Assembly: GCA_002422305.1 (NCBI GenBank)
Contig: DIUG01000068.1
Location: forward strand, 2,811 to 66,810
Source: Patescibacteria group bacterium UBA6164
GTDB lineage: Bacteria; Patescibacteriota; Gracilibacteria; BD1-5; UBA6164
DNA length: 64,000 bases
Direction: 5' to 3'
The stretch's first letter is position 1; each line of letters begins with the position of its first letter. The notes beneath the pieces were generated by a model. It had not been told where the DNA came from. It saw nothing but the letters and a program-made list of their open reading frames with translations, and searched no databases. A program made the translations under genes and the position numbers. Below, one piece after another: positions 2,674-35,709 of the stretch.

Positions 2674-4548
2674 ATGATGAAAATTTTTTACATACTTTTT
2701 TTCTTTTTTTTATATTTTATGCATACTTTTGCATACAATGAAATAAAAATTATTTCTAGATCTCAATGGTGAGCAGATGAAAATATTAGATTTGTAGATT
2801 CTCCTGAATGGAAAAAAATATTAGAAGAAAGAGAAAAAATAGCTATAAAAAATAAAGATATTGTTTATACTCAAGCTCAGCTTGATGCACAAAAAATATC
2901 TCAAGATAGAAGAAATAAGATAAATGAATTATTTAATAAATATTCTTATCAAACTGAAATAAGTAATAAAATTACTCATGAAAATGGTAGAAAGTTATTT
3001 TGGCCAATAGAAAAGGCAAAAAAAATATGATGAATAGTTATTCATCATACTGGAACAGATTATGAGACTTCATTAGAATGAGTTAGAAATATTTATAAAT
3101 ATCATACATTGACTAATGGTTGGTGAGATATATGATATAATTATATTATATGAAAAGATGGTGAAATATATGAATGAAGAGCTTGATGAGATTATGTTGT
3201 ATGAGCTCATAATAAATATAATAATATTTGAACTGTATGAATATCAATAATATGAAATTATACAGAAAAGCCTATAAATTCAAAACAGTATGAATCGTTA
3301 AAATCACTTACTTCACATTTAATTAAAAAATATGATATAGATTTAACAAAAAAAATGTATTATCATAAAGAGTGTGTAGGTCGTAATTGTGAATTACCAT
3401 TAATAACAGAAAGTAATGATTTTTTAATATGACATAGAGATGCTTGACATACTGATTGTCCTTGAGAAGAATTATATAAACAAATACAAAATATAAAAAC
3501 TGATTTATTAAAACAAAAATCTTTTGTATCAAGTTGAAATTTATATAAAAAAAATATTTTTAAAACTTTAGAAAAAATACCAGATGATAAATTAATTGAT
3601 ATATTAGCAAATATAGAAATGCAATTAGATATAAAAAAAGATTCAAGTAAATTGAATTTAAAATTATTAATAATTGATTATTTTAAGGAAAGAAAAAATA
3701 CAAAAAATACTATAGTAAATAAAAAAGAAGAAATTATAGATATAAAATTATCATATCCTAATAATGATAATATAAAAATAAAGACAGGAAATATTACAAT
3801 TGATATTAGTAGAGAATGAAATGACTTATATTTGAAATGAAAAAAATTTAATACATTAAAAATTCCTAAAAAAGATCAGGAATCTATTTTAGAAATAATT
3901 TCTTGGGAAAGAATTCCATTATGGGATAAACAAAAAAGATATAATGATAATAAATTTAGATGAGATTTAATCTTATATGTAAAAGATGAAAAGTTGGTAG
4001 TTATTAATAGAATAAATGTAGAAGATTATTTAAAATGATTATGAGAGGTAAGTGATTATGAAACTCCAGAAAAAATAAAAGCTATAATTATTGCAGCTAG
4101 AAGTTATGCAATTTGGTATAAGACAAAAGATAGAAAATTCCCATGAGAAGATTATGATTGAATAGATGATCCAGAAGTTTTTCAAAGATATCTTTGATAT
4201 GGTTTAGAAGCTAGAAGTCCAAATATAAATAAAGTTGTTGATGAAACAAAATGACAAATAATTACATATAAATGAGAAATAATTAAACCATGGTATTTTA
4301 GTACTAGTAATTGAAAAACATTAAGTTATTATGAATATTGTAGATTAAAATATTCAGATGCAATTTGTAGTAAAGAAGCTAAAAAATACCCATATTTACA
4401 ATCGGTTTATGATATATGAAGTAAATGACAACAATCTGCATGACATTGAGTTTGAATTTCTTGAGCTTGAGTTAAATATTTTGCTGATAAATGATGGACA
4501 TTTGATATGATAATAAAATATTATTTAAAATGAGTTGATGTATTATAA
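2674..4548 (+). CDS. secreted N-acetylmuramoyl-L-alanine amidase (amidase_2/PGRP) fused to a SpoIID/LytB domain
   Basis: N-terminal signal-like MMKIFYILFFFFLYFMHTFA. Amidase_2 motifs IVIHHTGTDYETS...[36 protein letters not shown]. C-terminal SpoIID-like block EDYLKGLGEVSDYETPEKIKAIIIAARSYAIWY...GHGVGISGAGVKYFADKGW. Track ORF 3619..3819 is in the same frame. Confidence 0.8.
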
Positions 4549-4555
4549 AAAAGTA

Positions 4556-6688
4556 ATGAAAAAAATATTCAAATTAAAATCTAAATATTCTCCTAGTATT
4601 GATCAATTTAAAGCTATTGACACTATTACAAATTATATAAATGATTGACATAAAATTCAAACACTTTGGTGAGTTACTTGAAGTGGTAAAACTTTTACAA
4701 TGGCAAATGTAATAGAAAAAATAAATAAACCAACATTAATAATAGCTCATAATAAAACTTTAGCTGCTCAATTAGCTCAAGAATTTAAAGAATTTTTTCC
4801 AGAAAATTCAGTACATTATTTTGTATCATATTATGATTATTATCAACCTGAAGCATATGTAGCAAAAACTGATACTTATATAGAAAAAGAAGCAACAATA
4901 AATGAAGAAATAGATAGACTTAGACATGCAGCTACTCAAGATTTATTAACCAGAAAAGATGTAATAATAGTTGCTTCTGTATCTTGTATTTATGGTATAT
5001 GAGATATAGATTTATATACTGAACAAGTTTTTGATATAGTAGTTTGAAAAGAATATAAAATCGATGAATTATTAAAAAAATTAGTTTCTCTTCAGTACAG
5101 AAGATCTGCTAGTGATTTTAAACCTTGAATGGTTACAGTTAAGTGAGATATTTTAGAAATATTTCCTTCTAGTAGTGAGACAGTTATTACGATAGAATTT
5201 TGGTGAGATGAAGTAAGTCAAATAACTAGTAGAAATTATTTAACGGGAGATATTTATGAATATTTAAAAAATATAACTATTTTTCCAGCAAAACATACTG
5301 TAACTACAAAATGAAGAATAGAAGAAATAATTCCAGAAATAAAAAAAGAATTAGAAGATAGATTAAAATATTTTAAAGATGAATTATGAGATTTATTAAA
5401 ATATGAAAGACTTAAAACAAAAGTAGAATATGATTTAGAAATGATGCAAGAAGTTTGATATGTAAATGGTATAGAAAATTATTCTAGATATTTAGATGGT
5501 AGAAATGATTGAGATGCACCTGCAACTTTGATAGATTATTTTTGAGATGATTTTTTATGTTTAGTTGATGAATCGCATATGACTTTTTCTCAAATATGAT
5601 GAATGTATGCATGAGATAGGGCTAGAAAAATAAATTTAGTAGAAAATGGTTTTAGATTGCCGAGTGCTATAGATAATAGACCACTTAAATTTAATGAATT
5701 TGAAGCAAAAATGAAAAATATAGTAGCAGTTTCAGCTACTCCAGGTAAATATGAAATAGAACTTTCATGTACAAATCCTGAAAAATTTTTTGATTTCGAT
5801 CCTATAAAAGATTGAATTTGGGAATCTACACCTGATTGTAGAATAGTTCCTCAAATGATGAGACCTACTTGATTGCTTGATCCAGAAATAGTTTTAAAAC
5901 CTATGGAATTTATGATAGATGATATAATGAAAAACATAACTGATGTAGTAGAAAAAAATGAAAGAATACTTATAACAACTATTACAAAAAGATCAAGTGA
6001 AGAATTAACAGAATATTTATTAGATAATTGAGTGAAAGTAAAATATTTACATAGTGAAATAGAAACACTTGAAAGATTAGAAACATTGAAAGAATTAAGA
6101 GAATGAAAAATAGATGTAATAGTAGGAGTAAATTTACTTAGAGAATGACTTGATTTGCCAGAAGTAAGTAAAATATGTATATTAGATGCAGATAAACAAG
6201 GTTTTTTAAGATCAGTATCATCTCTTATTCAAATAATATGAAGAGCAGCTAGAAATGAAAATTGAATTGTTTATATGTATAGTGAACATTATAAAAAATT
6301 AGAAAATTTGGAATTAGTAGAAAATAATATTTATCTTTGAAAACTTTATAGAGTAGATAAAGCTAAATTGATTAATGAAAATTGATTAGTGATCTCTGAA
6401 GCTATGAAAAAAGCTATAAATTTAACTTATTATAGAAGAAATTTACAAGATAAATTTAATAAAGAAAATAATATAACTCCAAAAACGGTTTTTAGTGATA
6501 TAAAAGATATGTGACTAAAATCAAATAAAACAAAAAGAAGTTATTCTGTTTTAGAAAAAAAAGATATATTAAAGGAAATAACTAAGCTAGAATTAGAAAT
6601 GGATATAGCATCAGCAAATATGGAGTATGAAAAAGCAGCAGAATTAAGAGATGCTATTTTTTCACTAAAAAAAACTAAAAATAAATAA
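4556..6688 (+). CDS. uvrB: excinuclease ABC subunit B
   Basis: Walker A L-W-G-V-T-G-S-G-K-T, with TGA at 4670-4672 and 4679-4681 encoding both Gly residues. Also [34 protein letters not shown], and a C-terminal UVR motif ([11 protein letters not shown]). Contains track ORF 4700..5002. Confidence 0.95.
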
Positions 6689-6696
6689 AAAAAATT

Positions 6697-7536
6697 ATGT
6701 GTAGAATACTATTTTTAAAATGAACTAATAAAAAAAAAGCATTAGATTATATTGATGCTTTTTATAAAGCATGATTTGATGATCCTCATTTATGTAATGT
6801 TATCAAATCTTTAAATATTAAAAATATTAAAAATCAACATCTTCATTGATGGGGCTATTTATTAGTAACAAAAGATAATATTAATACTTATTTGAGTTGA
6901 GAGGCATTTTTTAATGATGAATTTGGTTTTGAAAATCTAAAAAATCAAATTTATAATATTTCATGAGAATTTTTATTAATGTCTGAACTAAGATTAACTG
7001 ATGAATGACATATAAGTTCTATAAATTCGCATCCTTTTTTCTTTTCTACATATAATTGATATGAGTGATGGTTTTTTTATAATTGACTTTTAGATCATGA
7101 AAAATTGGCTTTGTTAGACTGATTTGATTATAAAAACTTTGTAAGAAAAAATGGAACAACAATTATATGTCATTCAATATCTAAAGAGTTAGAAAAATGA
7201 TCAACTGTAAAAGAATCATTACTTAAACCAGTAAAAGCTGTAAAAAGTGGTTATAATATTATGTGTTTTTTAAATGATAATAATTGAAATTTTAAGGCAT
7301 ATATAAATGCATATTGTAAAGAAAAAATTTTAGAAAATTTAAATCATATGGAATACTCTAAACTTATAAAAAAATATGATGATGATTTATTTTTTGTATG
7401 ATCAAATGCTATATGAGTTTATAAAAAAGATAATTATATTGTTATGGAAAATTGAGAATTTTTAGAATTTGATATAAATTTTATAAATGAATATTATTTT
7501 AATTGATATGATGAGGGGATGGAGATGAATATATAA
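6697..7536 (+). CDS. class II (Ntn) glutamine amidotransferase-like protein, YafJ-type
   Basis: Starts M-C-R (nucleophile Cys2). Has HLHGWGYLL and SHPFFF...YNGLL motifs. Ends at TAA 7534-7536. Confidence 0.6.
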
Positions 7537-7541
7537 AAAAA

Positions 7542-7565
7542 ATCAAGCATTTTGCTTGATTTTTT
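7542..7565. terminator. bidirectional rho-independent terminator
   Basis: Hairpin atcaagc-atttt-gcttgat, with an A-run upstream and a T-run downstream, lying between convergent genes. Confidence 0.7.
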
Positions 7566-7800
7566 AGTATCAACTTATTCATTCAGTATCACAATTTTCT
7601 GGATCATCTATACATTTATTTATAGCAGTAGTTCTAACAGCTCTATTTGTAGCAAATTTATTTACTACTCAAAAAGTTTCTTTTGTAACTGTTGATATAG
7701 TGCTTCAAAAAACAGGTACATAAGATGTAGCATATTCTAATCATTCTCATAATAGTATACTTCATTTTAATACTTCTACTTTTCAAGCATCTAGTTTTCA
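7564..7800 (-). other. 78-codon open frame continuing in frame directly after the TAA of the lipoprotein gene, with no ATG/GTG/TTG start
   Basis: The frame GKLDAGKVEVLKGSILLGEGLEYATSYVPVFGSTISTVTKETFGVVNKFATNRAVRTTAINKCIDDPENCDTEGISGY is stop-free. That is unlikely by chance at this AT content. It ends at TAA 7564-7566. Confidence 0.4.
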
Positions 7801-8769
7801 TTATTTTCATAATTGTTCGATTTTATCTATTTTATCTTGTATGTCTTTCATTTTTTCATAAGCAGCTTTTAATTTTTCATATTTTTCATTAGCATTTTCA
7901 TACATTTTACTTCATTTATCATATGTTTCTTTTAATCATTCCATTTTAGATAGCATATATTTCATATTAGCTCATGATCTATTATATGCTTCTTCTAATA
8001 TTTTTTCTTGTGCTTCATCCAAAATAGCATCTTTTTTATCATTTACCATATCTACTAGTGTATTTTTTACTGTATCTACAAGTGTATTAGCATTTTCATC
8101 TAATTCTTTTGCTGTTTTTTCTGTTTCAGTAATATTTTTTAGTCCTTCTAATTGAGCTAAAATATCATCTTGATGTTTAGATCTATATGATGAATAGTTG
8201 TGAGCTATAGATTGTTTTAAGTCTTCATCATATATAAATTGTAATATTTCATCTTTTTTCTTTGTATAATATGCTGATTTTTCTGTTTCAGGTAATTTAT
8301 TAAAAGTATCTTTAAGCTTTATTTCTAAATCTTTTTTTTGTTTTAATAATTCGCTTGTTTCAGATCATATAGAAGTATTTAATTTTGAATTTATTTCTTC
8401 TAATTGTTCATCAACTGTTTTTACAACTTTAGTTCTAGTTTCTCATTGACATTCTTCTTTTGTATATGACATTAATCATCATTTTACATTATTACAAATA
8501 GATTCATCTCAAGTATTTATAGCTATTTGCATATAACATTTATCTTTTGGTGGATTTGATCAAGAATCTTTAAAAGCTGTTCATTTTATATTTTCACAAG
8601 CACTTGGTGAAGATGATTGTATTGCAACAAATTGAGAGCAATGATCTGAGTCTGGTACTAATTCACATACCATTCATCATATACTTTCTAAAAAACTACA
8701 TGAAGATAAAAATAGAACTGATAATAATGAAATAGTAATTATTTTAAAATTTGATTTTAAATTTTTCAT
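7801..8769 (-). CDS. lipoprotein with long coiled-coil region (322 aa)
   Basis: N-terminus MKNLKSNFKIITISLLSVLFLSSC has a lipobox L-S-S-C. Ends at TAA 7801-7803. Confidence 0.7.
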
Positions 8770-8790
8770 AAATCTAATTTATAGTATAAA

Positions 8791-9234
8791 TTATTTTTCA
8801 ATTTTTATTTTTTTAAATGAAAGTAATACAATTAATAAAAGTGTTATAATAGAACTTCCGATCAATGGAATAGAAAAGGTTTCAATTATTAATCTAGCAA
8901 AATCTGCAATTCTAGATTCAAAATACATAAAATCAATTCATAAAAATAAGAAAAAACCATAAGTCATAAGATATATTATAATCGTAACAGTCAAAAAATT
9001 TAGTCTTAAAATATATTTTATAAATATTAATAAATATATTATAAAAAGGCTTAGAAATCATAAAATAATAGGAGAAAACATAGTATATTTTAGATATATA
9101 TCTTTGTATTTTAAATCTGATATATTAGGTTCCTGGTTGAAGTATTTGAGTAATAATAAGTAAAAAGTAATTCAAAATATTACACTTACAATAATAGGTG
9201 TATTTTTTAGTTCAATCAATCTTTTATTTTCCAT
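8791..9234 (-). CDS. small multi-pass membrane protein (147 aa)
   Basis: ATG at 9234 to TAA 8791-8793. Contains several hydrophobic stretches. Confidence 0.55.
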
Positions 9235-9371
9235 AATTTAATAATTAAGAAATAAGAATTTATAAACATATATTATTATATAACTTTTTTATAGAAATCA
9301 ATAGATTTTCGTAGAAAGTATAATACATTTTTGTCTTTACTTTTTTTATTATTTAAGTACAATGTTTTTAC

Positions 9372-9817
9372 GGGGTTAATCTTGGTTTCTATCGGGAGAA
9401 TTGCTCGGGTTATATGCTATCTGGGAGGTGTTTATGACTTCCATAATCAATCATAAACAAGCATAAATGCAAAAAACAGAATCGCAGGTGGTTTAGCATC
9501 TTTTAAAAAAATACTAACTCCATCTTTAGTTATTGCCTAAGCATTAACTAGTAGTCTTCGCTAAGTCGATGAGCACCGTTTGGTCTACTACAAAGTCTAT
9601 AAAAATCCCCACTCTTGGAGTTTTACAGACTTATAAAAAAGAGTTTTTATTGAAACGGTTTTGATTTAATCTTGTTTCTTTAAAATATTAATAGATTAGA
9701 TTTTTATGTGTAATTTTTGTTTGTAATTTATACACATGAATATCAAAACAAACTATGATAGTAGATGTGTTTCTTTAGCCTTCCGAGACGTGAGTTCGAA
9801 TCTCACTAGCTCCACCA
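9372..9817 (+). ncRNA. ssrA: tmRNA (transfer-messenger RNA)
   Basis: 5' GGGGTTAATCTTGGTTTCTATCGGGAG and 3' GAGACGTGAGTTCGAATCTCACTAGCTCCACCA give a T-arm, an acceptor stem with a G3:U pair, and CCA. Candidate tag ORF at 9469-9540: AKNRIAGGLASFKKILTPSLVIA followed by TAA. Confidence 0.9.
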
Positions 9818-11350
9818 TATTGCAAAATTAGTATTTTTGATAAAATTGAAAGGTGTTTTTAGTTGATAACTAAGCACTTTTTTATTGCTTATTTTTAGGT
9901 TCTCAACTATGTGAAAAAAATGGTTAAACAATTGAGAACTTTTTTCTTCTAAATCTTTACTTTTTGTCTTATCTAAAAGGAAATCTAAGTATTTAATAAA
10001 ATCTATTATTTTTTTAAATACTTTTTTTGATTCTTCTTGATTTTGTAAAAATTTATTTTCATTAGTTAATTTTGTTATTTCCTCATCTATGTAAGTAGAT
10101 GACTTTTCTAAAATACTTTTTGTTATTTTACTTTCAATAAATGATTGAGTTAATTCTTCATTCTTTTTATTTAATTCTTCTATTTTTTTTATATTTTTCA
10201 TTATTATCAGTTTCTTTTCCTTATCTCAAATAGAGTATTCTTTATTTAATTTTTCAATACTTTTCTGTATAAAATCTTTACTTGGAAGAAATGATAAAAA
10301 TATTTGTTCAATTTCTTTTTCGATAAGATTCAAATTAGTATAAGGTTCATTACATTTATAAGTAAATACTGAATTTAATTGCTTAGGACATTTTAAATAT
10401 TTATTTAGTTTTTTATCATCTCTAAGCATCAATCTTCAACAACTACACTGAAAAGTTTTTGGTATTCAGGTTCTACTATAAACAAAACCTCATCTTCTGT
10501 CTTTTTGTTTTTTTATTTCCTGACATTTATTAAATAATTCTTCTGTAATTATTGGATACACAAAATTAAGATCATATTCTTCTTCATGTCTTCAAGGTTT
10601 TTCGACTCACCAGAAGATATATTCTTCTTTTGATAAATTCCAAACTTTCACTCTTTTTCATGTATATGTTTTAGTGTTTAAAATTACCTCCATTAGTCTT
10701 GTACTAATTTTTTTGTAATAATCCTCATCTCATTTTAAACCACTTTTTATTTTCTGAGTTAGACTTTTATTTCAGTACAATCATGTAGAATAAAGTTTAA
10801 AGATTTTTTGAACAATTTTTGCTTTGTCTCAGTCTTTTATGTAAGTTCAATTTATTCTTTTGTATCCAAAAGGTGTATTTCATCAAATATCTCAACCATT
10901 TTGTAGTTTTTTTCTGATTCAGAGTTTAATTCTGAAAGATAATTCTTCACTATATAATACACTTCTATTTTGTATATCTCTAATCATATATCTTCACATA
11001 TAACTATTTAACAATGGTTCAGATATAGATATTATATTAATATTTTTCTCTGTGATTAATTGGTCAATTAATACAAAATCATTTATGTTCCTACTTACTC
11101 TATCCCACTTAAATACAACAATTCATTGTAAATTTTTCTCTTTTTTTATAAATTGAATCATTTCATTAAAGATAGGTCTTGTTCATTTGTAAGCACTGTT
11201 TTCTTCTTTGTAAATTTTTACCAATTCAAAATCATGTTCAGAACAATATTTTTGAATTTGGTCTATTTGCGAGGGAATTGATATATTTCTCTCTTTTTGT
11301 TCCCATGAACTAACGCGAGCAAGAGCTACGTATTTTTTTCTTTCATTCAT
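9806..11350 (-). CDS. large serine recombinase (514 aa)
   Basis: N-terminal resolvase motif MNERKKYVALARVSSWEQ...VVFKWDRVSRN, a recombinase domain, a Cys-rich zinc-ribbon (CSCGRL...KCPKQ) and a coiled-coil tail. The last codons ata-tgg-tgg-agc-TAG are the reverse complement of the tmRNA 3' end. Joins track ORFs 10226..10432 and 9806..10201. Confidence 0.85.
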
Positions 11351-13020
11351 AGTATTTCTTTAATAAATAAGGATATTTTAATATTTTTAATAAATACTTG
11401 ATTTTTTTCATCTTTATCCAATTCAATTCCATCAACTAATACTTTTAATTTTTTATTTATATTTATATCAGTATCTTTTAGTGTTTCATTAATATTTTTA
11501 AAAATACTTAAAAATATTTGTATTTGATTATTAACATGAGAGTTTAAATTATACAACTTATCATTTATGTCTTTTAAATAATCATTATAATAAGACATTT
11601 CTTTGTTTATAGTTTTTAATTCATCATTTTTATAATTTATATTTTTTAATGCATATTCATAATTATTGACTATTCTCTCATATACCATTTTATTTGCTTT
11701 GAGTGATTTTTCATTTTTTTTGTAAAACTTTTGTATTTTTTCAAGAGTAAGTTTTTTTAAAAAATCTATTTGCGCATCATTAAAAACTATTTGTTTTAAT
11801 GTTTTATTTTTTTCTAATAATTTATCTATTTTTAGTTGAGATATAAATATTCATTTTTCATCTTTGGTACTTCTTTTTTTAGTTCTGTATTGAATACTTC
11901 ATTTTTTTAAATATGCTTCTAATTCTATTATTTCTCCATCTTCATTAATCATATAAAGTAAATTAGAATATTTTCATATTATTTTTTCTTCTTTTTTATA
12001 TGTTCTTTTTTGCTTTTTTGCTAATTTAAATTTATAATCATCTATAATTTGAAGATCAGAAAAATAAAAACTAAAAGTAATAGTTCATCATACTTCATTG
12101 AGTCAATTTATATCAAAATCATCATCTTGTTTTTCTCATATATTAGCAATATAGTTTACTATTAATTCATCATTTATATTAAGTTCATTGGTAAATTTTC
12201 AATTATACTTAAAACTATATTTATTATCATAATTATTTTCTAATACTTCTCTAATCAGTCTTAATTCATTATTTAAAGGAGTATCATAATTATCATTTTT
12301 ATTTAAATTATCACTTTTATGACTTCTTATAATCTTTTTTTCTTTTTCATTTAATTTTTGCCAAATAATATCCCATTTTTTATCCTCATTTTTAACATAT
12401 TCTTCATTTTCTTGATTACTTATCTTCAAATAAATATCAAAAATTCTATTTATAACTAAAGCATGATTTTTATCTATTTCTATTTTTTGAGTATTATAAT
12501 TTTTAGTGTATCAAAAAATAAGTTTTCATCATAATCCTCATATATTTCATCTGATTAAGTTTTGAATTCTTGAAAGACTTTGTCTGTTTGATAGTTTTTC
12601 ACTTTCAAATATAGCAAAACTTGAAAGCATTCTAAAAAGGAGTCTTCAAGTAGGAGTATTTTCCAATGTTTCAGTTGCTGATAATATTTTATATCATTCA
12701 TTTAAAAGTTTTTCTCATCTGGTGAAGTCAACAGAGTTTCTTGCAAATCTATCGAGTTTAAAAACATAAACTCATCAATATTTTCTATTTTCTTTTTTTA
12801 ATTTTGAATCTTCTATAAGAATTCTGATCATTTTATCAAATTCAATTCTATTTTCTTTTTTACCACTTGCCATTTCTTCAACTATGATGGTTTTATGTCA
12901 ATTATTATCGGCCATTCCAAGAAGAATATTTTTTTGATCTTCTAAACTCATATCATATTCTCACACTTTTGACACCCTTGTATAGATGAAATAAATTTTT
13001 TCTTCTTGTGATTTTGTCAT
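11326..13020 (-). CDS. large serine recombinase (564 aa), second copy
   Basis: MTKSQEEKIYFIYTRVSK...QD...VYVFKLDRFARN. Overlaps the downstream recombinase start by 25 nt. Joins track ORFs 12199..12429 and 11347..11688. Confidence 0.85.
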
Positions 13021-20935: not shown

Positions 20936-21760
20936 TTAAACATCTCTATGAAATAAATTATCTATTTCAATATCATTATTAATAGAAACTATATTAATAT
21001 CATTTTTATTACTTGTAAATCTTTCTTTATCATAATATCAATTGCCTTTAATATAATCATCAATAATTCATTTAATATTAATATTAGAAGAAGAAAATAT
21101 TTCATATGTATCAAAATCTTTTTTATCAATAATATTAAAAGTAAATTCACTAATATAGTCATCTATCATATTTTCTATTTCATGAATAATATCAGATTCA
21201 TCATAATAAAATTCAACTTCTCAATCTTCATAACGTTTTATTGTTACAAACTTTTCTAAATTAACTTCATGATACTCATCTTGAATTTTATCTATTAAAT
21301 AATATTCAATATTTTCTTTAAAATAATATAACAAATCTTGACTATGTATTATATAAAATAGATTTGATAATTTTTCTAAGAAATTTCATACAATATTTAT
21401 ATCATCTATATTTAATTCAAGTTGTTTTCACACAATATAAATATCTAAAAATAAAGAAGATTTTATATTTAACTTATCAACATACTTATCAATTAATTTT
21501 ATAATATCAATAAAGGTGTTTTGAAAAATATCTTCTTCTTCAGTATTTTTAATAAAATCCTGTAATTTATTGATAATACTTTCTTCATTAATAGATTCTT
21601 CTGAAAATAATTTAAATATATAATATAAATAATCTAAATTAGTATTATCATCAAAATTATCAATTATTGAACTTAATATAGCATGATAAACTCCTTTTTC
21701 TATATACAATTTTTTTTCTGATTTATCTAATCCAGACTTATAAATCGAATATAAGTTTTT
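20936..21760 (-). pseudogene. C-terminal continuation of the Mrr/NTPase gene in another frame
   Basis: The frame is open from 21760 to TAA 20936-20938 with no plausible start. The frame switch coincides with the A7 homopolymer at about 21758-21764. Contains track ORF 21428..21709. Confidence 0.55.
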
Positions 21761-23297
21761 TTATTGAAATATAAGTATCTAAATTTTTATATATACTTAT
21801 TAATTCATTTTGATTATTTATATATTCATTAATTACAAAATCTGATATTGATGGATTGAATAATGTGTAACTAACTTCTAAATTTTTAGGATTAATATTT
21901 CTATTTAAAAATGATTTTACAGCAACTTTGATTACAAAATTAAAATCTTTTGATTTATGAGTTGGTGAAATAATAGAATCTTTTATCTTATTATAAGAAT
22001 GTAATAGATCTTTTTCAATTATATATCATCCATTAAATACAACTAATTTTATTAATAGTCTAATATATTCATTAGATTGATTATAAAATGAATCTCTCCA
22101 TATATCCTTAGGATTATCTAATTTATCAATTAAAAAATTAAAATATTTATTAGCTTCTACATTAATTCTATCTTTTGTTGTGATAAATTCTATTAATCTT
22201 GGATTAAAACTTTTGTGTTTTATTATTTTTAAATAATTTTTATTTTTATAAATTTCATCAATATATTCATTATCTAAATCTGAATTGTATATATGTTTAT
22301 ATAATATTTGGGCTTTTTCATAATCACTAAAAGATTTTATTTCTAATGTAAACTCATTATTTTGGATTTTTGATTTTCAAAATATAGTACTATAATTTAA
22401 TCAATAATTAAGAATATTACTTCTTGAATTTAAGATAAATTTTTTCTTTCAAGTAGTATTTTTTTTAACTCTATTTATAAAACTTATAATATGACTATCT
22501 TGGTTATTATTTATTGCTTCAAAATAATTACTTCAAAGAAAGTCATCAAAATAAAATAATTGTTTTTCTTCTTTATTCCATACATTTTCTGCTTCAATTA
22601 TTCAGTCTTGAATTTCATAAAATTTATAATCATGTAAAGCAACTAATTTTAAGCATAAATTTTCTGATAGTGTTGTCTTTCAAATTCAAGGATCTCATGT
22701 TATTATTAATACATTTTCATCTTCAAGTTTTTTTAATGCATCATTAAAACTTGAAATTTCAATAAAAAATTTACTTTTTTCTATAATTTGTTCAAATTGA
22801 AATTCACTTCTTCAAATAATAGCATTATTTAAAATGTTTTGAAGTACATTTGTGCTTGTTATCCATAATCTGTAATATTTTCTTTCTATATCATTATTTT
22901 TAGAAAGTTCTGAATTTAAATTTTCATTTCAAAAAATATCATCAGTAGTTTCAATATATGGACTAAAAATAGATTTTATCTCTTTTTTATTTTCATCTGA
23001 TAATAGTAAATCAGTAACAAATATATATTTATCTAACTCTCAATTTAAAGATAAATTTTTAACCTTTTCAACTTCATATTTTTTCAATTTTCTAATTAGT
23101 CAATCATATCAAGTTTTTAAATATTGTTTTGTTTGAATTATTGCAGTTTTATTATTATCATAAAAAAACTTTCAATCAATTCATTTATCTTTTCATGATT
23201 TAAATCTATCAATTTTTGTATTATAAACTTTTTCTAATAAGTCATTTACAAAAATTTCAAATTCTTTATCATCCAATTGTGAAAAATCATAAGCCAT
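21738..23297 (-). CDS. Mrr-like restriction-endonuclease domain + P-loop NTPase, N-terminal 519 codons of a frameshifted gene
   Basis: DDKEFEIFVNDLL...GKDKGIDGKFF (Mrr_cat-like), Walker A ITGDPGIGKTT, Walker B LFYFDDFLG. Ends at TAA 21738-21740 just after an A7 run. Confidence 0.7.
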
Positions 23298-23317
23298 AAT
23301 TCTATCTTACTTAAAAA

Positions 23318-23914
23318 CTAAAATTTTCTCACTAATCCTTTCACAACTCAAATGATATTTATTTGATTTGCTTCAATTATTTTTGTCTTATATTTGTTAT
23401 AATTTTGAAACTCTAAAATTGCCTTTCAAGTCTTATCTTTTGAATATCTTTTTAGAGTAAATTCATTATCTCAATCAATAGTTGCTATTACTAAATCTCA
23501 AATATGAGGATATCTATTATTTAAATCAACAGAAACTATATCTCACTCAAATATTCAAACATCTATCATACTATCTCATTTTACCTCAACAAGAACAACT
23601 CAAGTAGGATTTCAACCTAAAATATATTTATTCAAGTCAATATAGTTAACAATATTAGACTCTATTTCATCAGCAACTCAACAAGTTATATTTCCATAAA
23701 GTCCTGCTCAAGATAATTTTTCAGTAGGAAAGTATTTTTTGTCTTCTTTTGTTAAATATCATTCTTCTACTAATTTTGTAAAAAATCTCGCAATACTATC
23801 TCTTGATGAAATTTTTAATAAATCTATCAAAATATCAAAAGTTGGAATAATTCATTTATCCCAATAATATGATCTCAATTTAGATAAATATAAATCAAAA
23901 TTGCTTTTTCTCAT
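23318..23914 (-). CDS. LexA-like repressor (wHTH + S24 peptidase)
   Basis: C-terminal EVKGDSMIDVGIFEGDIVSV...GDLVIATIDGDNEFTLKRY...IIGVVKGLVRKF (Ser/Lys dyad context). Lies 21 nt upstream of the Mrr/NTPase gene. Confidence 0.75.
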
Positions 23915-23927
23915 AAAAAATATATTA

Positions 23928-23973
23928 TTACTAAAAATATAACTAACATTACTATTTATACCTATTTTAGTAA
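23928..23973. promoter_or_regulatory. candidate operator in divergent promoter region
   Basis: 9-bp inverted arms ttactaaaa (23928-23936) and ttttagtaa (23965-23973), between the lexA-like start and the DUF2779 gene start. Confidence 0.25.
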
Positions 23974-24013
23974 AATAAATATTTTTTGCAAATAATTATT
24001 AATCATTCAAAAT

Positions 24014-25807
24014 ATGTTAATAACAAAATCCCTTTTTGTAGACTACAAAGAATTTCCAAAAGTAGCTTGGTGGAAACAAAATTCAATTGAAACTTACAAA
24101 AAAATTAAATGACTTGAAACGGAAGAACAAGAAATAGCTATTATGGAACTTGGTCAAAAAGTAGAAGATCTGGTTTGAGAATATTTCTTAAAAGTTGAAT
24201 GAATTGAAAAACTTGATGTTTTTTGAGATAATACTGCTTTTGATAATCAAAATGAAGATGATATTGATATGATTATTATAGAGGAGTCATACAAAGAAAA
24301 AAGAGAAAGAAATTTAAAACAAACTATTGAAGCTATAAAAAGAAAAGAACCTCTTATTTATCAACCATGATTTTTAATAGATAATCTTTTTGTGAGATGA
24401 GATTATTTAAAGTTAAATGAAAATTGAAATTATGATTTATATGAAGTAAAAGCAAAAACTTGAGTAAGAAAAGATAAAACTCATGAAAAAATAAAATACA
24501 AAAAAATATGGGAACTTGAAAATAAATTTGTATATGATATTTCTTTTCAAAAATATGTTATCAATAAAGTCCTAAATAGTGAGTGATTATGACAAATAGA
24601 GAATTTTTATTATGTTTACCTTAATTCAGAATATAAAAAAGATTGAGAAATAAATTTAAGAAAAATAATTACAGTGGATCAAGTAGATATTCAAAAAACT
24701 ATTACCTTAGAATGAGAAAAAACAACTAAAGATTTTATAAGAAATGATTCATTACTTACTCCTTTAGTTATAGAATGAACTATACAAAAAATGAGAGAAG
24801 AATTAAATTTTATTGAAGTAGAATTCAATAAAATTCATCCTTTTTCTTGAAGTAAATCTATAGAATATTTTGGAAAAGATAGAGAATTTTGAACTATTTA
24901 TTGAAAATGACTTAATCATTGTAATAAAGCCGTAAAAGAGCTACATTATTCATGAAAAAGTATACTTGATGATTTAAGTGAAAATGAACAAATATTATTC
25001 AATAAAACTGATTGAAGTATTTGAGATGCAAGACAATATATTATTAACTATTTAGAAGCAAAAAACATTTGAGAAGATTTTATAGATAAAGAAAGTATAA
25101 AACTTGAACTTGATGATTTAAAATATCCAATTTGTTTTTATGATTATGAAAGTTGTAGTGTACCAATTCCATTTTTAGATAATACTTCTCCTTATCAACA
25201 TGCTGTTGTTCAATATAGTATGCACAAAGTTTATGAGGATTGAACTATAAAACATTTTGGTTGAGTTTTAGTTGGAACTTGAGAAAAAGAAGTAAAACAA
25301 ATAGTAATAAAAAATAATAAAAATAAAGTTGATTTTGAAAGTGAGAAAGTAATAACTTGATGATACAAGGATTTATTAGATGAATTTATAGCTGATATAT
25401 GAGAGGATTTAGATAAAACTTTTATAGTTTGGTATAAACCTTTTGAAAATACAAGAAATAAAGAAATTGCTGAAACTTTTCCAGAACTAAAAGAGGCATT
25501 TGAAATGATAAATGAAAATACTTATGATCTGATGGACATATTTTCAAAATGATATTATTATTCCTTAAGATTTGAGTGATCTAATTCAATAAAATATGTA
25601 TTACCAGCTCTTGTTTCAGAAATGACATACAAAGACATGGAAGTCCCAAATTGACTTGTTGCAATGCAAACCTTAAATCAAATAATTGAGTGAAAAATTA
25701 CTTGAGATGAAAAAGAAAAACAAATAAGAAATTTGCTATTATATTGTGGGCAAGATAGTTTGGCTATGTATAGAATTTATGAGAGGATAGTCGAAAGCAT
25801 TAAATAA
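24014..25807 (+). CDS. DUF2779-family protein (RecB-like/exonuclease-like), 597 aa
   Basis: N-terminal LITKSLFVDY and the central block FYDYESCSVPIPFLDNTSPYQHAVVQYSMH resemble the DUF2779 signature. Confidence 0.55.
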
Positions 25808-31099: not shown

Positions 31100-31612
31100 T
31101 TATTTATTATTATTTTCAATATATTGAATTGTTTTTTTTGTACTTTTTATCTCTTTAATTATTTTATACAGCCTATAAGGTCATACAAATCCTCATATAA
31201 TACAAGAAAATGCTAACTTAATTACTTTTTTCATAATTAAAGAAATTATTGATTCATTTACTACTATTTCTATAGTATTAGGGTCTTTTAATGAGTTTAA
31301 AAAACTCCATCAAAATCAAACAAATATGGTAAAATAAGTGATAAAAAATATCTTTAAATATCATTCCATATTAAATGAAAAATTTCTTTCATTAGTAATT
31401 TGATAAACATAAAATAATGATACCAAACTTCATATTAAAAAATATTTTATTATATCTGTATAGTAATTCTTGATATCAAGATTTAATGCTTTTAAATTAC
31501 ATTTATCACATACAGGTATAGTAAATTGATTAAAACAATCTTTACATAATCACACAGAACAATATTTACAAGTTCAAATTGTGTCTTTATCTCCATGTTT
31601 ATAACATTTCAT
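31100..31612 (-). CDS. B-box-type zinc-finger membrane protein (170 aa)
   Basis: MKCYKHGDKDTIGTCKYCSVGLCKDCFNQFTIPVCDKCN followed by 3-4 TM segments. Confidence 0.6.
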
Positions 31613-31625
31613 AATAAAAAATAAT

Positions 31626-31820
31626 AAAAAAATAAGATAAGCAGATTTGCTTATCTCATAATTGTTTATAACAAAGTGGAGAAAGCAACCCTGCTTACCC
31701 AATCTTGAATGATTTTTAATAATTCGTAAAAAACTGGAAGGTTACTTTCTCCAGTTTAACTACGAAATTAAATACAATAAAAACCTGCCATTATTGGCAT
31801 CACAAGATGTGGTAAGCAAA
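31626..31820 (-). ncRNA. unclassified structured RNA (~190 nt), stand-alone sRNA or riboswitch-like leader of the membrane-protein operon
   Basis: Relatively GC-rich. Closing helix ugcuuacc..aucuug / caagau..gguaagca. Internal hairpins gcca-auaa-uggc and uucgua[cuggag...cuuccag]uacgaa. A 14-nt alternative pairing joins uggagaaaguaacc and gguugcuuucucca. G:U pairs occur only in minus-strand sense. A terminator hairpin plus U-run lies at 31626-31656. Confidence 0.65.
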
Positions 31821-31823
31821 AAG

Positions 31824-31851
31824 AATATACTTTTTTATTTTAAAAAGTCAA
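31824..31851 (-). promoter_or_regulatory. sigma70-like promoter for the structured RNA
   Basis: On the minus strand: TTGACT (31851-31846), a 16-nt spacer, TATATT (31829-31824). This places the start at the first base of the closing helix. Confidence 0.5.
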
Positions 31852-31960
31852 CAAAAACCACTTAAATAACTGCTTTAAAAGTAATTTTATACACATTTAT
31901 TTTGCATTTTAAAAAAATAAATGCTACAATATACACATATAAAAGTAATATATCTTTCTT

Positions 31961-33871
31961 ATGTGAATTGAAACTTCAACATATGATACTAATGAGACTC
32001 TGTCTACTCTAGAAACTCAAAATAATACTCCTCTATCAAATGAAGAAATAGAGGATATTTCTGTTTCAAGAATGTTATACAAAGAAAGACTTGCTTTAGT
32101 TGAACAAAGAGCAAAAGTAAAAGATGAAAATTATGACAGAGCACAAGATTTATTAAAAGATTATCCTCATCAAAACAATTTCATAAAATATAATGGACTT
32201 TTTTACAGAGATATAATAAGTGTTGATTTTTGAGAGTCAGGCAGACCTTTTGTAATTTATGTTCCAAAATTTTCAAGACAAGATTTAGAAGAATATATTA
32301 CTGATTTTGATAAAGAACAAGAAAACTTAAAAAGTATTGAAAGACTTTTAAGAGATAATCCAAATAATCAAACTTTTTATGAATTAGATGGAAAATATTA
32401 TACTTCAAATCCAAGTAGAGTTCCTTGAAATAATATAAATGCTATTTTAAGAGTCAAACAAGTTTCCAGAACTCACCTTGAAGCAAAAGTTGAAAGTATA
32501 GAAAAATGAAGTATTGAAAGTATTTCTCTGCAACTTGATAGAGCAATAGCAAATACAAATAATTGAAACATAAGAAATTATTTAATGGATTTAAGGATTT
32601 GAATCAGTTTAAATGGAAACAATGATTTAATACTTACTTTTTGAGAAAGAATTTGAAGTTTAATAAATCTACTAGAAAAGTCTGAAGTACAACCTCTTAG
32701 TATATCTGAAATATGAGAAATAATGTTACTTATTTTTAATATTCTAAGAAGTTGAGTAAGTGATTGAATTAGAATAATGATATCACTCATAAAAGATGTT
32801 AGTTCAAATAAACTTTATAAATTTTGAGAAGAAGATAGTGAATATGAAAAAATTATTAGAGAAAGTTTTGAAACTGGAAATATTTGAGTTGCTATTTCAT
32901 TTTTAGAAAAGATTTTTCCTACAAACTTTGTAGAGTGAGTAAGAGAATGATGAATTGATACTGCTTCACTTCCTCTTGCAATTTGAGCAGGGTGAATTGA
33001 TGGTTTTTTAGATTATATACAAGCAAGTGTTGATATAGTTGTTATTCCAGATACTATTATTCAAAATATATGACAACTTAGTGCTGAAATTTATAGAAAT
33101 GGAGGAGATTTAATAAATGAACTTGCTAAAAATTTTACAAAAGTAAGTGATTATATGTATGTTTTATCATATATAGTTGCTGTTGTATTATCATTTAAAG
33201 TTTTACCTTCAAAATTTTGAATTCTTGCTTTACCAAATGTAATTATGAGATGATTACAAGCAAGTTGAAAAATCCCTGCAAATATGCTTGGATGAGTAAA
33301 TAATTTTTTAACAAATAATATTCAAAAAATTGAAGTATTAGTAAATAACAATATAAAATGAGTTACTATTAGTAGTGAAAAAATATGAACTTGAATCAAT
33401 ACAGCTCTCAGATGAAGTCAAAAAGTGAGAGATAGTGTTGATGGAAGTAATACTTTAATAAATTCTATTTGAGTAAATGCTAGACAAGTAAGAGCATCAA
33501 GAGAAGCACTTTCTATAACGAATAATTCACTAAAACTTGCATCTATTTTTTGAGAAAGTGTTGTTTGAAGAACAAATGAAACACTCACAACAAAAAATGC
33601 TATGAGTGCTTATAAAGAAATGATTTTAAAGTTAAATGGATTTAATAATGATGATATAGATGCACTTATAACTGAAACTAAATGAGAAGTAAGGTATAAT
33701 CTCGTTTTAATAAGAGAAAGACTTATGGAAGTGGAAGAGGTTATTGAGAGTGAGGTTTTGCCTATATGGAATAGTCGTGATAAATTAACATTAAATCAAA
33801 AAATTACTATATTAAGCCAAATGCATAAATATAGTGATTTATGAAAATTAATAATAAAAATGTTAATTTAA
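31961..33871 (+). CDS. large hypothetical protein (636 aa) with central hydrophobic segments and a variable C-terminal tip
   Basis: ATG 31961 to TAA 33869-33871. The C-terminal 60 aa before the tip are duplicated at 34564-34746. Confidence 0.6.
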
Positions 33872-33887
33872 TAAATAAATAAAATTA

Positions 33888-34493
33888 TTAATCTCAAAAA
33901 ATTTTCATTAATCATAAAATGAATATTAAACTATTTACTGTGTATTCATTAAAACGAGGGTCTTTTATTCAAATTCTTTCGATTTCTTTAAAATATTCAC
34001 TTATTACAATAAATAAATTTCAATTTTTATCTCTATCATAATAAAATCAACTTCAAACTTTTTCTCAATTTTTTAATCTTTTTTCAGTGTATTGTCTATC
34101 AGTAAACAATTTTTTACTAAGAATATTTCAAAAATTATCAATATCATATCATTTTATATCAAATATTGTTCTTCATAAATCATCTACATAAGCTGATAAT
34201 TCTCAATTTGATATCCTAATAGAATATATATTAGTTCAAGTTATTTCATTTAAAATTTTTTTATGTTCATCTATATTTTTTCCTAACTGCATAAGTTTAA
34301 TAATAGCACTTTCAAAAAAACACTTTTGTTCAGGATACTTTTCAATAAGTTTTTGTCTCAATTTTTCTACTAAAATCTCTTCATTTAGTTTTTCTCTTTC
34401 TTCTCTACTCCAATTAAAAGTATCTGCTATTTCAGGAGTTTCTAGATTTTGTTTTATTTCACAAGTTTGTGATGAAGTTTCTAAATTTTTCAT
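33888..34493 (-). CDS. hypothetical protein (201 aa), conserved N-terminus / variable C-terminus, cassette partner A
   Basis: Extends track ORF 34236..34493 through TGA to TAA 33888-33890. Convergent with 31961..33871. Confidence 0.55.
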
Positions 34494-34542
34494 ATTTTTT
34501 ATTATTTTTAATAATATTTATGAAATTGTATCATATTTTTAT

Positions 34543-34896
34543 ATGTTTTGCAAAAATTATGCTACAAAAAATGCTATGAATGTTTATAGAGAAATGATTT
34601 TAAAATGAAATGGATTTAATAATGATGATATAGATGCACTTATAACTGAAACTAAATGAGAAGTAAGATATAATCTTGTTTTAATAAGAGAAAGACTTAT
34701 GGAAGTGGAGGAGGTTATTGAGAGTGAGGTTTTGCCTGTTTGGAATGAGAATGAAAAAATATTAAATGAATGATTATTAGAAGGAGATAGTATTATAATT
34801 TATAACAACTTTAAAGAAAATATTATAAAAGATATAACAAAATATGATGAATTATCACAAATAATTTTTAGACAATTTATTTTAAAGACCCTTTAG
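34543..34896 (+). CDS. orphan alternative 3' cassette of gene 31961..33871 (117 codons)
   Basis: MFCKNY-ATKNAMNVYREMILKGNGFNNDDIDALITETKGEVRYNLVLIRERLMEVEEVIESEVLPVWN is followed by a different tail. Ends at TAG 34894-34896. Confidence 0.45.
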
Positions 34897-35404
34897 GTAA
34901 ATAATATATATAGATATACATATTAAATCTTGTACTTCATTCAGGAAAAAAAGTATTATCTTTAGGATTAAATAAAACAAATTTTCAATCTTTTTTTATA
35001 ATATGTGAATTTCATATTCTTCTACTAAGTAAATTTGCAAAATCATTATCAAAATCAAAACTTGAAATATCAAATAATGTATTTCAATTTTGGTCTAAAT
35101 AAGATAGTAAATCTCAATTAGATGCAAATAATAAAAATATATTACTATTTGTTACTTTTTCTATTGCTTCTAATTGTCTTTCATAATTTCATCACAACTG
35201 CATAATTTTAATAACAGCACTTTCAAAAAAACATTTTTGTTCAGGATACTTTTCAATAAGTTTTTGTCTCAATTTTTCTACTAAAATCTCTTCATTTAGT
35301 TTTTCTCTTTCTTCTCTACTCCAATTAAAAGTATCTGCTATTTTAGGAGTTTCTTGATTTTGGTTTATTTCACAAGTTTGTGATGAAGTTTCTAAATTTC
35401 ACAT
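34877..35404 (-). CDS. hypothetical protein (175 aa), cassette partner B (paralog of 33888..34493)
   Basis: The N-terminal ~70 aa are nearly identical to partner A (..NLETSSQTCEI.QN.ETP.IADTFNWSREEREKLNEEILVEKLRQKLIEKYPEQKCFFESA) and the C-terminus is unrelated. Overlaps the orphan cassette 3' end by 20 nt. Confidence 0.5.
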
Positions 35405-35515
35405 ATTTTTTATTATTTTAATAATATTTACAAAATTGTATCATATTTTTATATGTTTTGCAAAAATTATAGATTTCATTTTTAACTGAAAATAGAAATA
35501 TAAACAGATAGTAAC

Positions 35516-35541
35516 AAAAAAAGGCATAAATGCCTTTTTTC
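35516..35541. terminator. bidirectional terminator
   Basis: aaaaa-aaggca-taaa-tgcctt-tttt. Confidence 0.65.
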
Positions 35542-35709
35542 TTAAATACCAAATTCATCATCTCACAAAAATCATTCTAATTTATTTTCAAAATTCATCA
35601 ATCATTTTTCACTTAACTCAATTTTCTTTAACTCTATATCTTTTTTTGATACTCATTTTTTAAATTCATTAGATTTCTCTAACTCTTTCTTAATTTTAAT
35701 ATTTTTCAT
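35542..35709 (-). CDS. small charged hypothetical protein (55 aa)
   Basis: ATG at 35709 to TAA 35542-35544. Weak support. Confidence 0.3.

Follow-up and report, generated by a model that had tools for sequence, protein, structure and literature searches.

The ZTP/pfl, fluoride, and preQ1-I riboswitches are terminator-type riboswitches in which the 3′ strand of a pseudoknot is the switching sequence, and the pyr/PyrR leaders of Bacillus subtilis, the T-box leaders, and the SAM-I platforms work through tiers of anti-antiterminator, antiterminator, and terminator helices. The mRNAs of type I toxins (hok, tisB, and zorO types) have a long structured 5′ region, in which the 5′ end is paired with a distant segment, and a small hydrophobic ORF. 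Meanwhile, 6S RNA, which is not a gene leader, is a single-copy rod of approximately 180–200 nt with a large central bubble. Next to nothing is known of how Gracilibacteria and their ultrasmall, host-dependent relatives control their genes. Here, we describe an RNA from such a bacterium; it represents a structured RNA family that is new and previously uncatalogued and that belongs to an established regulatory kind.

The DNA analyzed is a stretch of 64 kb (hereafter, the window) with a G+C content of 20.9%. ORFs of at least 100 aa amounted to 20,751 aa with translation table 25, versus 1,325 aa with table 11; because coding is legible only when TGA is read as a sense codon (code 25), the window points to a Gracilibacteria/Absconditabacteria-type genome. 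Only one of the 47 genes in the window has GGAG, GAGG, or AGGA within 20 nt upstream of its start, and Shine-Dalgarno pairing seems to be unused in this genome; a TTATTTnTTAA-like motif precedes many gene starts. The tmRNA at positions 9372–9817 (plus strand) was the sole RNA in the window to pass the Rfam gathering score. The original prediction had placed a structured RNA of no recognized class on the minus strand, with a promoter and a terminator of its own, and the element sits between divergent genes, a 636-aa ORF (31961–33871, plus strand) on one side and three minus-strand ORFs for membrane proteins on the other. The promoter, closing helix, hairpins, 14-nt tail pairing, and terminator that had been listed were all recovered on the minus strand, where the RNA runs from 31817 to 31625, with the following parts and downstream genes.

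31851–31846, minus strand: −35 box TTGACT; most homologs have a TTGAYT-like box at this distance
31829–31824, minus strand: −10 box TATATT, 16-nt spacer after the −35 box, 6 nt between the box and G31817
31817, minus strand: predicted transcription start, the first base of P1 (G), 7 nt past the −10 box
31817–31803, minus strand: 5′ strand of P1, GCUUACC-AC-AUCUUG (P1a GCUUACC, then AC, then P1b AUCUUG), from the fold and covariation
31799–31786, minus strand: P2 hairpin UGCCA-AUAA-UGGCA with an A-rich tetraloop, from the fold and covariation
31785–31711, minus strand: P3 arm, made of P3a, an internal loop, P3b, and the apical P3c
31785–31778 and 31718–31711, minus strand: the two strands of P3a
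31766–31760 and 31729–31723, minus strand: the two strands of P3b
31757–31731, minus strand: apical hairpin P3c, AAACUGGAG[AAAGUAACC]UUCCAGUUU
31753–31740, minus strand: segment A, UGGAGAAAGUAACC, the common switching sequence, comprising the 5′ strand and loop of P3c and able to pair with A′ or B
31739–31734, minus strand: A′, UUCCAG, pairing with A in P3c
31707–31693, minus strand: 3′ strand of P1, CAAGAU-UG-GGUAAGC, in which UGG is conserved and an A:G mismatch is formed with A31810
31690–31677, minus strand: segment B, the 14-nt tail GGUUGCUUUCUCCA, which can pair with A (14 bp) or C
31676–31671, minus strand: U-rich run CUUUGU 3′ of B (4–9 U in homologs)
31659–31648, minus strand: segment C, the 5′ half of the terminator, AUGAGAUAAGCA, A-like, pairing with B with one bulge
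31643–31625, minus strand: segment D, the 3′ half of the terminator, UGCUUAUCUUAU, B-like, plus the U7 tract; near-identical in sequence in 10 homologs
31659–31632 (stem) and 31631–31625 (U7), minus strand: intrinsic terminator, a 12-bp stem followed by U7
31612–31100, minus strand: downstream gene, the first of the three membrane-protein ORFs, encoding a 170-aa membrane protein with a Cys-rich N-terminus
31071–30391, minus strand: second membrane-protein ORF
30368–28173, minus strand: third membrane-protein ORF

The 5′ and 3′ ends of the P1/P2/P3 domain (approximately 125 nt) pair with each other, and its fold is a three-way junction, beyond which the tail B (31690–31677) reaches back to A (31753–31740) in a duplex of 14 bp, including one U:G, with an energy of −21.5 kcal/mol. 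The distance from the end of U7 to the ATG at 31612 is 12 nt, not the 14 nt first given, and therefore there is no space for a separate conventional promoter between them. A B-box had been read in the downstream membrane protein, for which Pfam gave no confirmation. The description of the element as the most GC-rich patch other than the tmRNA also had to be corrected: the 226-nt patch has 27.9% G+C and is exceeded by 235 of 6378 windows, whereas its 147-nt core, with 34% G+C, is equalled at only three other spots, one of which is the tmRNA.

When compared with the systems above, the element resembles ZTP/pfl, fluoride, and preQ1-I riboswitches in having a domain in a 5′ leader, a pseudoknot with the tail, and a tail or neighbouring segment that would compete with a terminator before an ORF. 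However, its pseudoknot helix of 14 bp is far longer than the ligand-dependent ones and displaces a local hairpin, its regulon is incoherent, and neither its sequence nor its structure matches any riboswitch model in Rfam. With the pyr/PyrR, T-box, and SAM-I leaders it shares mutually exclusive helices (A:B, B:C, and C:D), of which the upstream one would decide the fate of the terminator; unlike them, it has an extra tier, A:A′, and possibly a first terminator made from A:B, and the genes that follow it are not biosynthetic. It also lacks the PyrR loop, the T-box sequence, and the specifier loop, and the Rfam T-box and PyrR models gave no match. Like the leaders of the hok, tisB, and zorO types, it is a long structured 5′ region with a paired 5′ end, which at five loci is followed by ORFs of 46–71 aa; however, it is separated from the ORF by a terminator, we saw no antisense RNA gene, and several of the ORFs are large (170–377 aa) or not hydrophobic. 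It is also like the orphan motifs of Weinberg/Breaker-type lists (PMC2864571, PMC1950547), which are covarying 5′ leaders with terminators from uncultivated bacteria and have no assigned ligand; unlike those, the present RNA is not in Rfam 15, has so far been found only in TGA = Gly Patescibacteria of 17–28% G+C, and stands ahead of small genes for membrane or surface proteins within mobile and defence islands.

The status of the RNA as unclassified was upheld by searches against Rfam 15 (4227 models, including 6S, SRP, RNase P, tmRNA, T-box, and riboswitches). The element matched no family at the gathering score, and none at E ≤ 10 either, at which the best results for 31500–32000 were miRNA or sRNA noise of 9–21 bits; when six homologous loci were searched, no family recurred at the position of the RNA. 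ARAGORN reported nothing, and a brief literature search found no paper describing this RNA family or any regulatory RNA specific to Gracilibacteria-like ultrasmall bacteria. Known mechanisms were also considered and rejected. A T-box leader is contradicted by the T-box model, which had no match at E ≤ 10, and by the absence of aminoacyl-tRNA synthetase or amino-acid genes downstream; a T-box-like mimic of the tRNA 3′ end (NCCA), by which CUCCA/UGGAG might be explained, likewise finds no support in the gene content. For 6S RNA there was no model match, and the three-way junction in place of a rod, the two copies per MAG or locus, and the leader position do not agree with it. A Shine-Dalgarno/anti-Shine-Dalgarno role for GGAG/CUCC was set aside given the single gene in 47 with such a motif. 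By reading of the sequences, the short ORFs inside P2 are unconserved, contrary to leader-peptide attenuation, and a pairing between the 3′ strand of P1 and the 3′ half of the terminator is not kept in L009.

The sequence of the window taken by itself does not go far. The minimum free energy of the element is −56.8 kcal/mol (z = −6.8), which none of 200 shuffles equalled, and three terminator-like sites were observed against 0.2 expected in shuffles. However, the plus strand folds nearly as well (z = −6.5), and promoter-type matches (21 observed, 22 expected) are not significant by themselves. Furthermore, a helix of at least 14 bp arose in 10 of 300 dinucleotide shuffles (approximately 3%) of this AU-rich stretch, and the A:B complementarity in one sequence taken alone is thus weak evidence. 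Because of the near-equal fold of the opposite strand, the ordinary promoter match, and the 3% of chance helices, the case had to rest on relatives.

Within the window, BLASTN, nhmmer, and two covariance models (R1 and R2) found only the element itself. The downstream 170-aa Cys-rich protein is an orphan, and the seven contigs that carry it have a 100% identical RNA and are thus uninformative. In contrast, a 731-aa protein led to five distant homologous loci, one of which, L009 (48–51% protein identity), has the RNA ahead of the operon (nhmmer E = 1.4e−4), with its helices rewritten by compensating changes. Synteny through a 311-aa FISUMP-like protein revealed the RNA in L043/L044 and none in L045 to L049. 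A scan pattern made of two conserved blocks from the pair of the window and L009 gave 11 matches in metagenomes, 6 of them true copies, and its relaxed form gave 12 matches in GTDB genomes, 5 of them true; in IMG/VR, two patterns produced only chance matches in high-GC coding DNA. Covariance model R1 recovered all the copies found by pattern and added L037:49-191 (74.6 bits) and later L043/L044, and model R2, applied to 265 kb of related loci, added no further copy. The family therefore totals 15 copies, 14 of them distinct, that is, the window and 14 further copies (13 distinct): window, L009, L020, L023, L026, L027, L029, L030, L032, L037 (two copies), L038, L039, L042, and L043/L044. All of them lie on contigs of 17–28% G+C (metagenome and MAG), with in-frame TGA verified in genes of the window, L009, L020, L023, L037, and L044. 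An affinity with the CPR was borne out, as every homolog is on a low-GC TGA = Gly contig labelled Gracilibacteria, Peribacteria, or Patescibacteria. Two copies (L039 and L042) are on different contigs of one MAG, and the two in L037 are 3.8 kb apart; the RNA thus forms a family, represented once or twice in a genome or locus.

Homologs and covariation had been proposed as a check, and compensatory changes were abundant among the 14 distinct sequences. When each copy was folded alone, the same plan was obtained (P1a, the A:G mismatch, P1b, P2, P3a, P3b, and P3c), with P2 missing in the shorter variants of L027, L029, and L037. In alignment A4, 90.5% of the cells of the nested helices were paired, compared with 40–49% when the partner strand was slid, none of 500 shuffles did equally well, and both-sided changes occurred in 31 of 42 pairs; these counts lean towards the model, because A4 is fitted to it, whereas neither the folding of each sequence alone nor the MAFFT/RNAalifold result depends on A4. 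P1 had 96.7% of its cells paired and both sides changed at 10 of 13 pairs, and compensatory changes were found in 4/5 pairs of P2, 8/8 of P3a, and 7/7 of P3b. At pair 98/120 of P3c, which flanks UGGAG, GC, CG, AU, and UA all occur. The A:B helix was paired in 99% of cells, with both-sided changes at 4 of its 14 pairs (AU/GC/UA at position 6, AU/UA at 7, GC/AU at 9, and CG/GC at 13), and 0 of 500 shuffles were as good. The copy L037:49-191, found by the covariance model only and hence free of any pattern, has A = UGGAGGAAAUAACC and B = GGUUGUUUCCUCCA, in which all 14 pairs are kept with two double changes. These results show a conserved structured domain backed by covariation in P1, P2, P3, P3c, and A:B.

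The tail pairing had been predicted to exclude the hairpin, as a switch or a pseudoknot, and covariation was found both for this pairing and for the excluded hairpin (pair 98/120). Because P3c and A:B both covary, A is common to two helices, which suggests a switch. Conservation is highest in A, B, C, and D, as expected when each strand has two partners, and P1 to P3 diverge; the apparent conservation of A and B is inflated, since the pattern through which most copies were found fixed parts of both. The same alignment bears on the strand. The G:U at pair 103/115 (P3c) is conserved in 12 of 14 copies and that at pair 108/184 (A:B) in 14 of 14; because the plus strand would have A:C mismatches in their place, these pairs, the promoter, and the U-tracts jointly fix the minus strand. 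The strand originally called therefore stands on these grounds, although folding energy does not discriminate (z of −6.8 and −6.5).

In ten copies, there is a second hairpin of near-constant sequence, (G)AGAUAAGCA...UGCUUAUCUU, despite the divergence of P1–P3. Its C strand resembles A and its D strand resembles B, and the terminator itself thus appears to join the alternative pairings. The B:C duplex of the window has an energy of −9.8 kcal/mol, matched by 2.2% of shuffled B sequences; across all ten copies that have C:D, the B:C duplexes range from −5.9 to −13.9 kcal/mol, and eight of the ten are in the best 4% of shuffled-B controls. Over 13 columns, 76% of the B:C cells are paired, compared with 31–51% when slid, and covariation is limited to one pair, with 16 of 500 shuffles reaching the observed percentage paired. 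The C:D hairpin is absent in four copies, including L037:49-191 and L042. A U-run follows B in every copy and is the sole U-tract in L037:49-191, L027, and L029, so that the A:B helix with its U-run may act as a first terminator.

With regard to the position of the RNA, a TATAAT/TATATT-like box stands 6–7 nt before the first G of P1 in 13 of the 14 distinct copies, so that P1 starts at the predicted +1. At the other end, a same-strand ORF starts 8–64 nt past the end of the model in 11 of 13 evaluable loci, beginning approximately 12–20 nt from the last U-tract. The exceptions are L027 and L029, which have no same-strand gene downstream and have instead convergent toxin-antitoxin-like genes and an integrase. 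Most likely, then, the RNA behaves as the 5′ leader of the downstream gene and not as a free-standing sRNA gene. The ORFs that follow different copies are unrelated to one another, being small membrane, surface, and mobile-island genes, and besides the gene in the window they include the following.

Downstream of the L009 copy: a YccF-domain protein
Downstream of an L037 copy: a membrane-anchored DUF2726 protein
Downstream of several copies: a family of 46–71-aa membrane or Cys-rich proteins, with a FISUMP-like protein of 303–311 aa next in L020, L037, and L043 and not in L023
Downstream of the L038 and L026 copies: hydrophobic or secreted proteins of 59 aa and 101 aa, respectively
Downstream of further copies: two soluble proteins of unknown kind

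Such differing genes are as expected of a portable cis-regulator. In this set (YccF, DUF2726, the 71-aa membrane protein with the FISUMP-like protein, the 731-aa family, and the unknowns), we found no coherent regulon that would point to one metabolite.

On this evidence, the RNA is probably a cis-acting attenuator or riboswitch-like leader, the family of which governs transcription read-through in Gracilibacteria-type (TGA = Gly) bacteria. In the scheme that we propose, the conserved promoter would start the transcript at the first base of the closing helix P1, and the outcome would depend on a chain of pairings, A′:A, A:B, B:C, and C:D, in which A could pair locally with A′ (P3c) or with the tail B, and B could alternatively pair with C, the mimic of A. 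In the OFF state, A:B would be an anti-antiterminator that leaves C free for D; the terminator would then form and yield a short RNA of approximately 190 nt, and A:B with the U-run after it could perhaps terminate transcription even earlier. In the ON state, A would be held in P3c, B:C would be the antiterminator, and the polymerase would enter the gene. The choice between A:A′ and A:B could be made by a protein, or by a small ligand or second messenger that binds the P1/P2/P3 domain. The OFF pairings (A:B, −21.5 kcal/mol, and C:D, −13.3 kcal/mol) are far more stable than the ON pairings (P3c, −8.6 kcal/mol, and B:C, approximately −10 kcal/mol), and the ON state would therefore need kinetic trapping or a factor. 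We infer where transcription starts, that it terminates, which way the switch works, and that a ligand exists. A more specific version, which is conceivable but doubtful, is that alternative-code Patescibacteria have in this family a new riboswitch class of their own, the ligand of which is a small molecule or second messenger, with one switching strand locking two tandem terminators and thereby controlling surface, membrane, and host-interaction genes, including moving cassettes.

That P3c covaries and yet is incompatible with the full A:B helix, and that the sequence of the terminator is constrained to mimic A and B, would be hard to understand if the element were a free-standing sRNA gene of approximately 150–190 nt, trans-acting or protein-binding, in which the tail and the loop form a static pseudoknot, P3c is a folding intermediate, and the downstream genes are independent. 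We regard such a gene as unlikely, although it would account for the own promoter, the 5′ end paired in P1, the one or two terminators after the RNA, the thermodynamic dominance of A:B, and the two loci with only convergent genes downstream (L027 and L029), and although terminated RNA would predominate whichever model applies. The same-strand ORF near the last U-tract in 11 of 13 loci, though the ORF families are unrelated, and the occurrence of two copies in one MAG and of two within 4 kb in L037 also argue for a leader.

The RNA might also be a 5′ module that senses no signal, is constitutive, and is carried along with accessory cassettes, either as a stabilizer of the mRNA (a 5′-terminal helix against 5′-end-dependent RNases) or as a put/EAR-like cis-acting antitermination RNA. 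P1 does begin at +1, unrelated accessory genes in islands are headed by the element, as is the cassette between the two halves of cas12a in L044, and nearly the same RNA occurs in another context in L020; however, a stabilizer needs neither terminators before the ORF nor conserved mutually exclusive helices, and the put and EAR models of Rfam show no resemblance, making this account quite improbable. As for a palindromic DNA repeat (a MITE-like element ending in inverted repeats) or a fold that arose by chance in AU-rich DNA, the element is single-copy in the 64-kb window, its promoter and U-tracts are oriented, and five separate helices covary among copies that have diverged with compensatory changes and have kept the strand-specific G:U pairs (12/14 at 103/115 and 14/14 at 108/184). 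The similar folding of both strands (z of −6.8 and −6.5), the 3% of shuffles with helices of at least 14 bp, and the mobile contexts are what such a repeat or fold would predict, but this reading is largely refuted and has hardly any probability left.

As an attenuator-like leader, the family offers a testable element with a defined promoter, a predicted start, a covarying fold, and competing helices that predict the outcomes of mutations, and the membrane and surface genes behind the RNA are candidates for host interaction. If it were indeed ligand-sensing, it would point to a signal that these organisms monitor, which would raise its importance; even if there were no ligand, it would be a compact promoter–leader–terminator module that accompanies horizontally moving gene cassettes.

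Several of the loci have features of mobile or defence islands. In L044 (and L043), within 3658–9273, a cassette at 5419–7092 consists of the promoter, the RNA, a 71-aa gene, and a 303-aa gene and is flanked by ORFs matching Cas12a, the N-terminal piece covering approximately residues 13–409 and the C-terminal piece starting from approximately residue 665. In other words, the cassette headed by the RNA divides or disrupts cas12a; genes for Cas1 and Cas2 follow. The RNA of L020 is nearly identical to that of L044 and has a different upstream gene. In L045/L046, where the RNA is absent, a tandem unit of approximately 6.08 kb contains bAvd, 401-aa, 73-aa, and 304-aa FISUMP-like genes, and this unit is probably a diversity-generating retroelement that targets the FISUMP-like family preceded by the RNA in L020, L037, and L043. 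In L027 and L029 (1100–3600), the convergent genes are XRE, Doc, and toxin-antitoxin-like genes with a tyrosine-integrase-like gene, as judged by sequence only; a partial tRNA (3710–3765) adjoins the integrase in L029, and in L030 a tRNA gene (357–429) lies 145 nt upstream of the RNA. The RNA may mark the edge of integrative elements.

The window itself contains comparable regions. Two large minus-strand ORFs (9806–11350 and 11326–13020), which are serine recombinase-like by their N-terminal sequences, with no domain search, abut the tmRNA gene and are followed by further large ORFs, and the region from 9372–13020 onward looks like an island integrated at ssrA. In L001, which is the same contig, the stretch equal to approximately 21700–25800 of the window has matches to nSTAND3, Peptidase_S24, and DUF2779. 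The C-terminal 60 aa or so of the 636-aa ORF are repeated in an orphan ORF (34543–34896, plus strand), and the ORFs 33888–34493 and 34877–35575, both on the minus strand, are paralogues of each other. The ORFs of 31961–35575 had zero matches in a Pfam search, and their layout resembles that of polymorphic-toxin/immunity cassette arrays. In L008, L009, and L010, homologs (approximately 900–990 aa) of the 731-aa secreted or membrane protein are followed by a gene for a patatin-like phospholipase and a gene of approximately 390 aa, which is MFS-like in L010, a set that could represent a conserved operon for the envelope or for host interaction.
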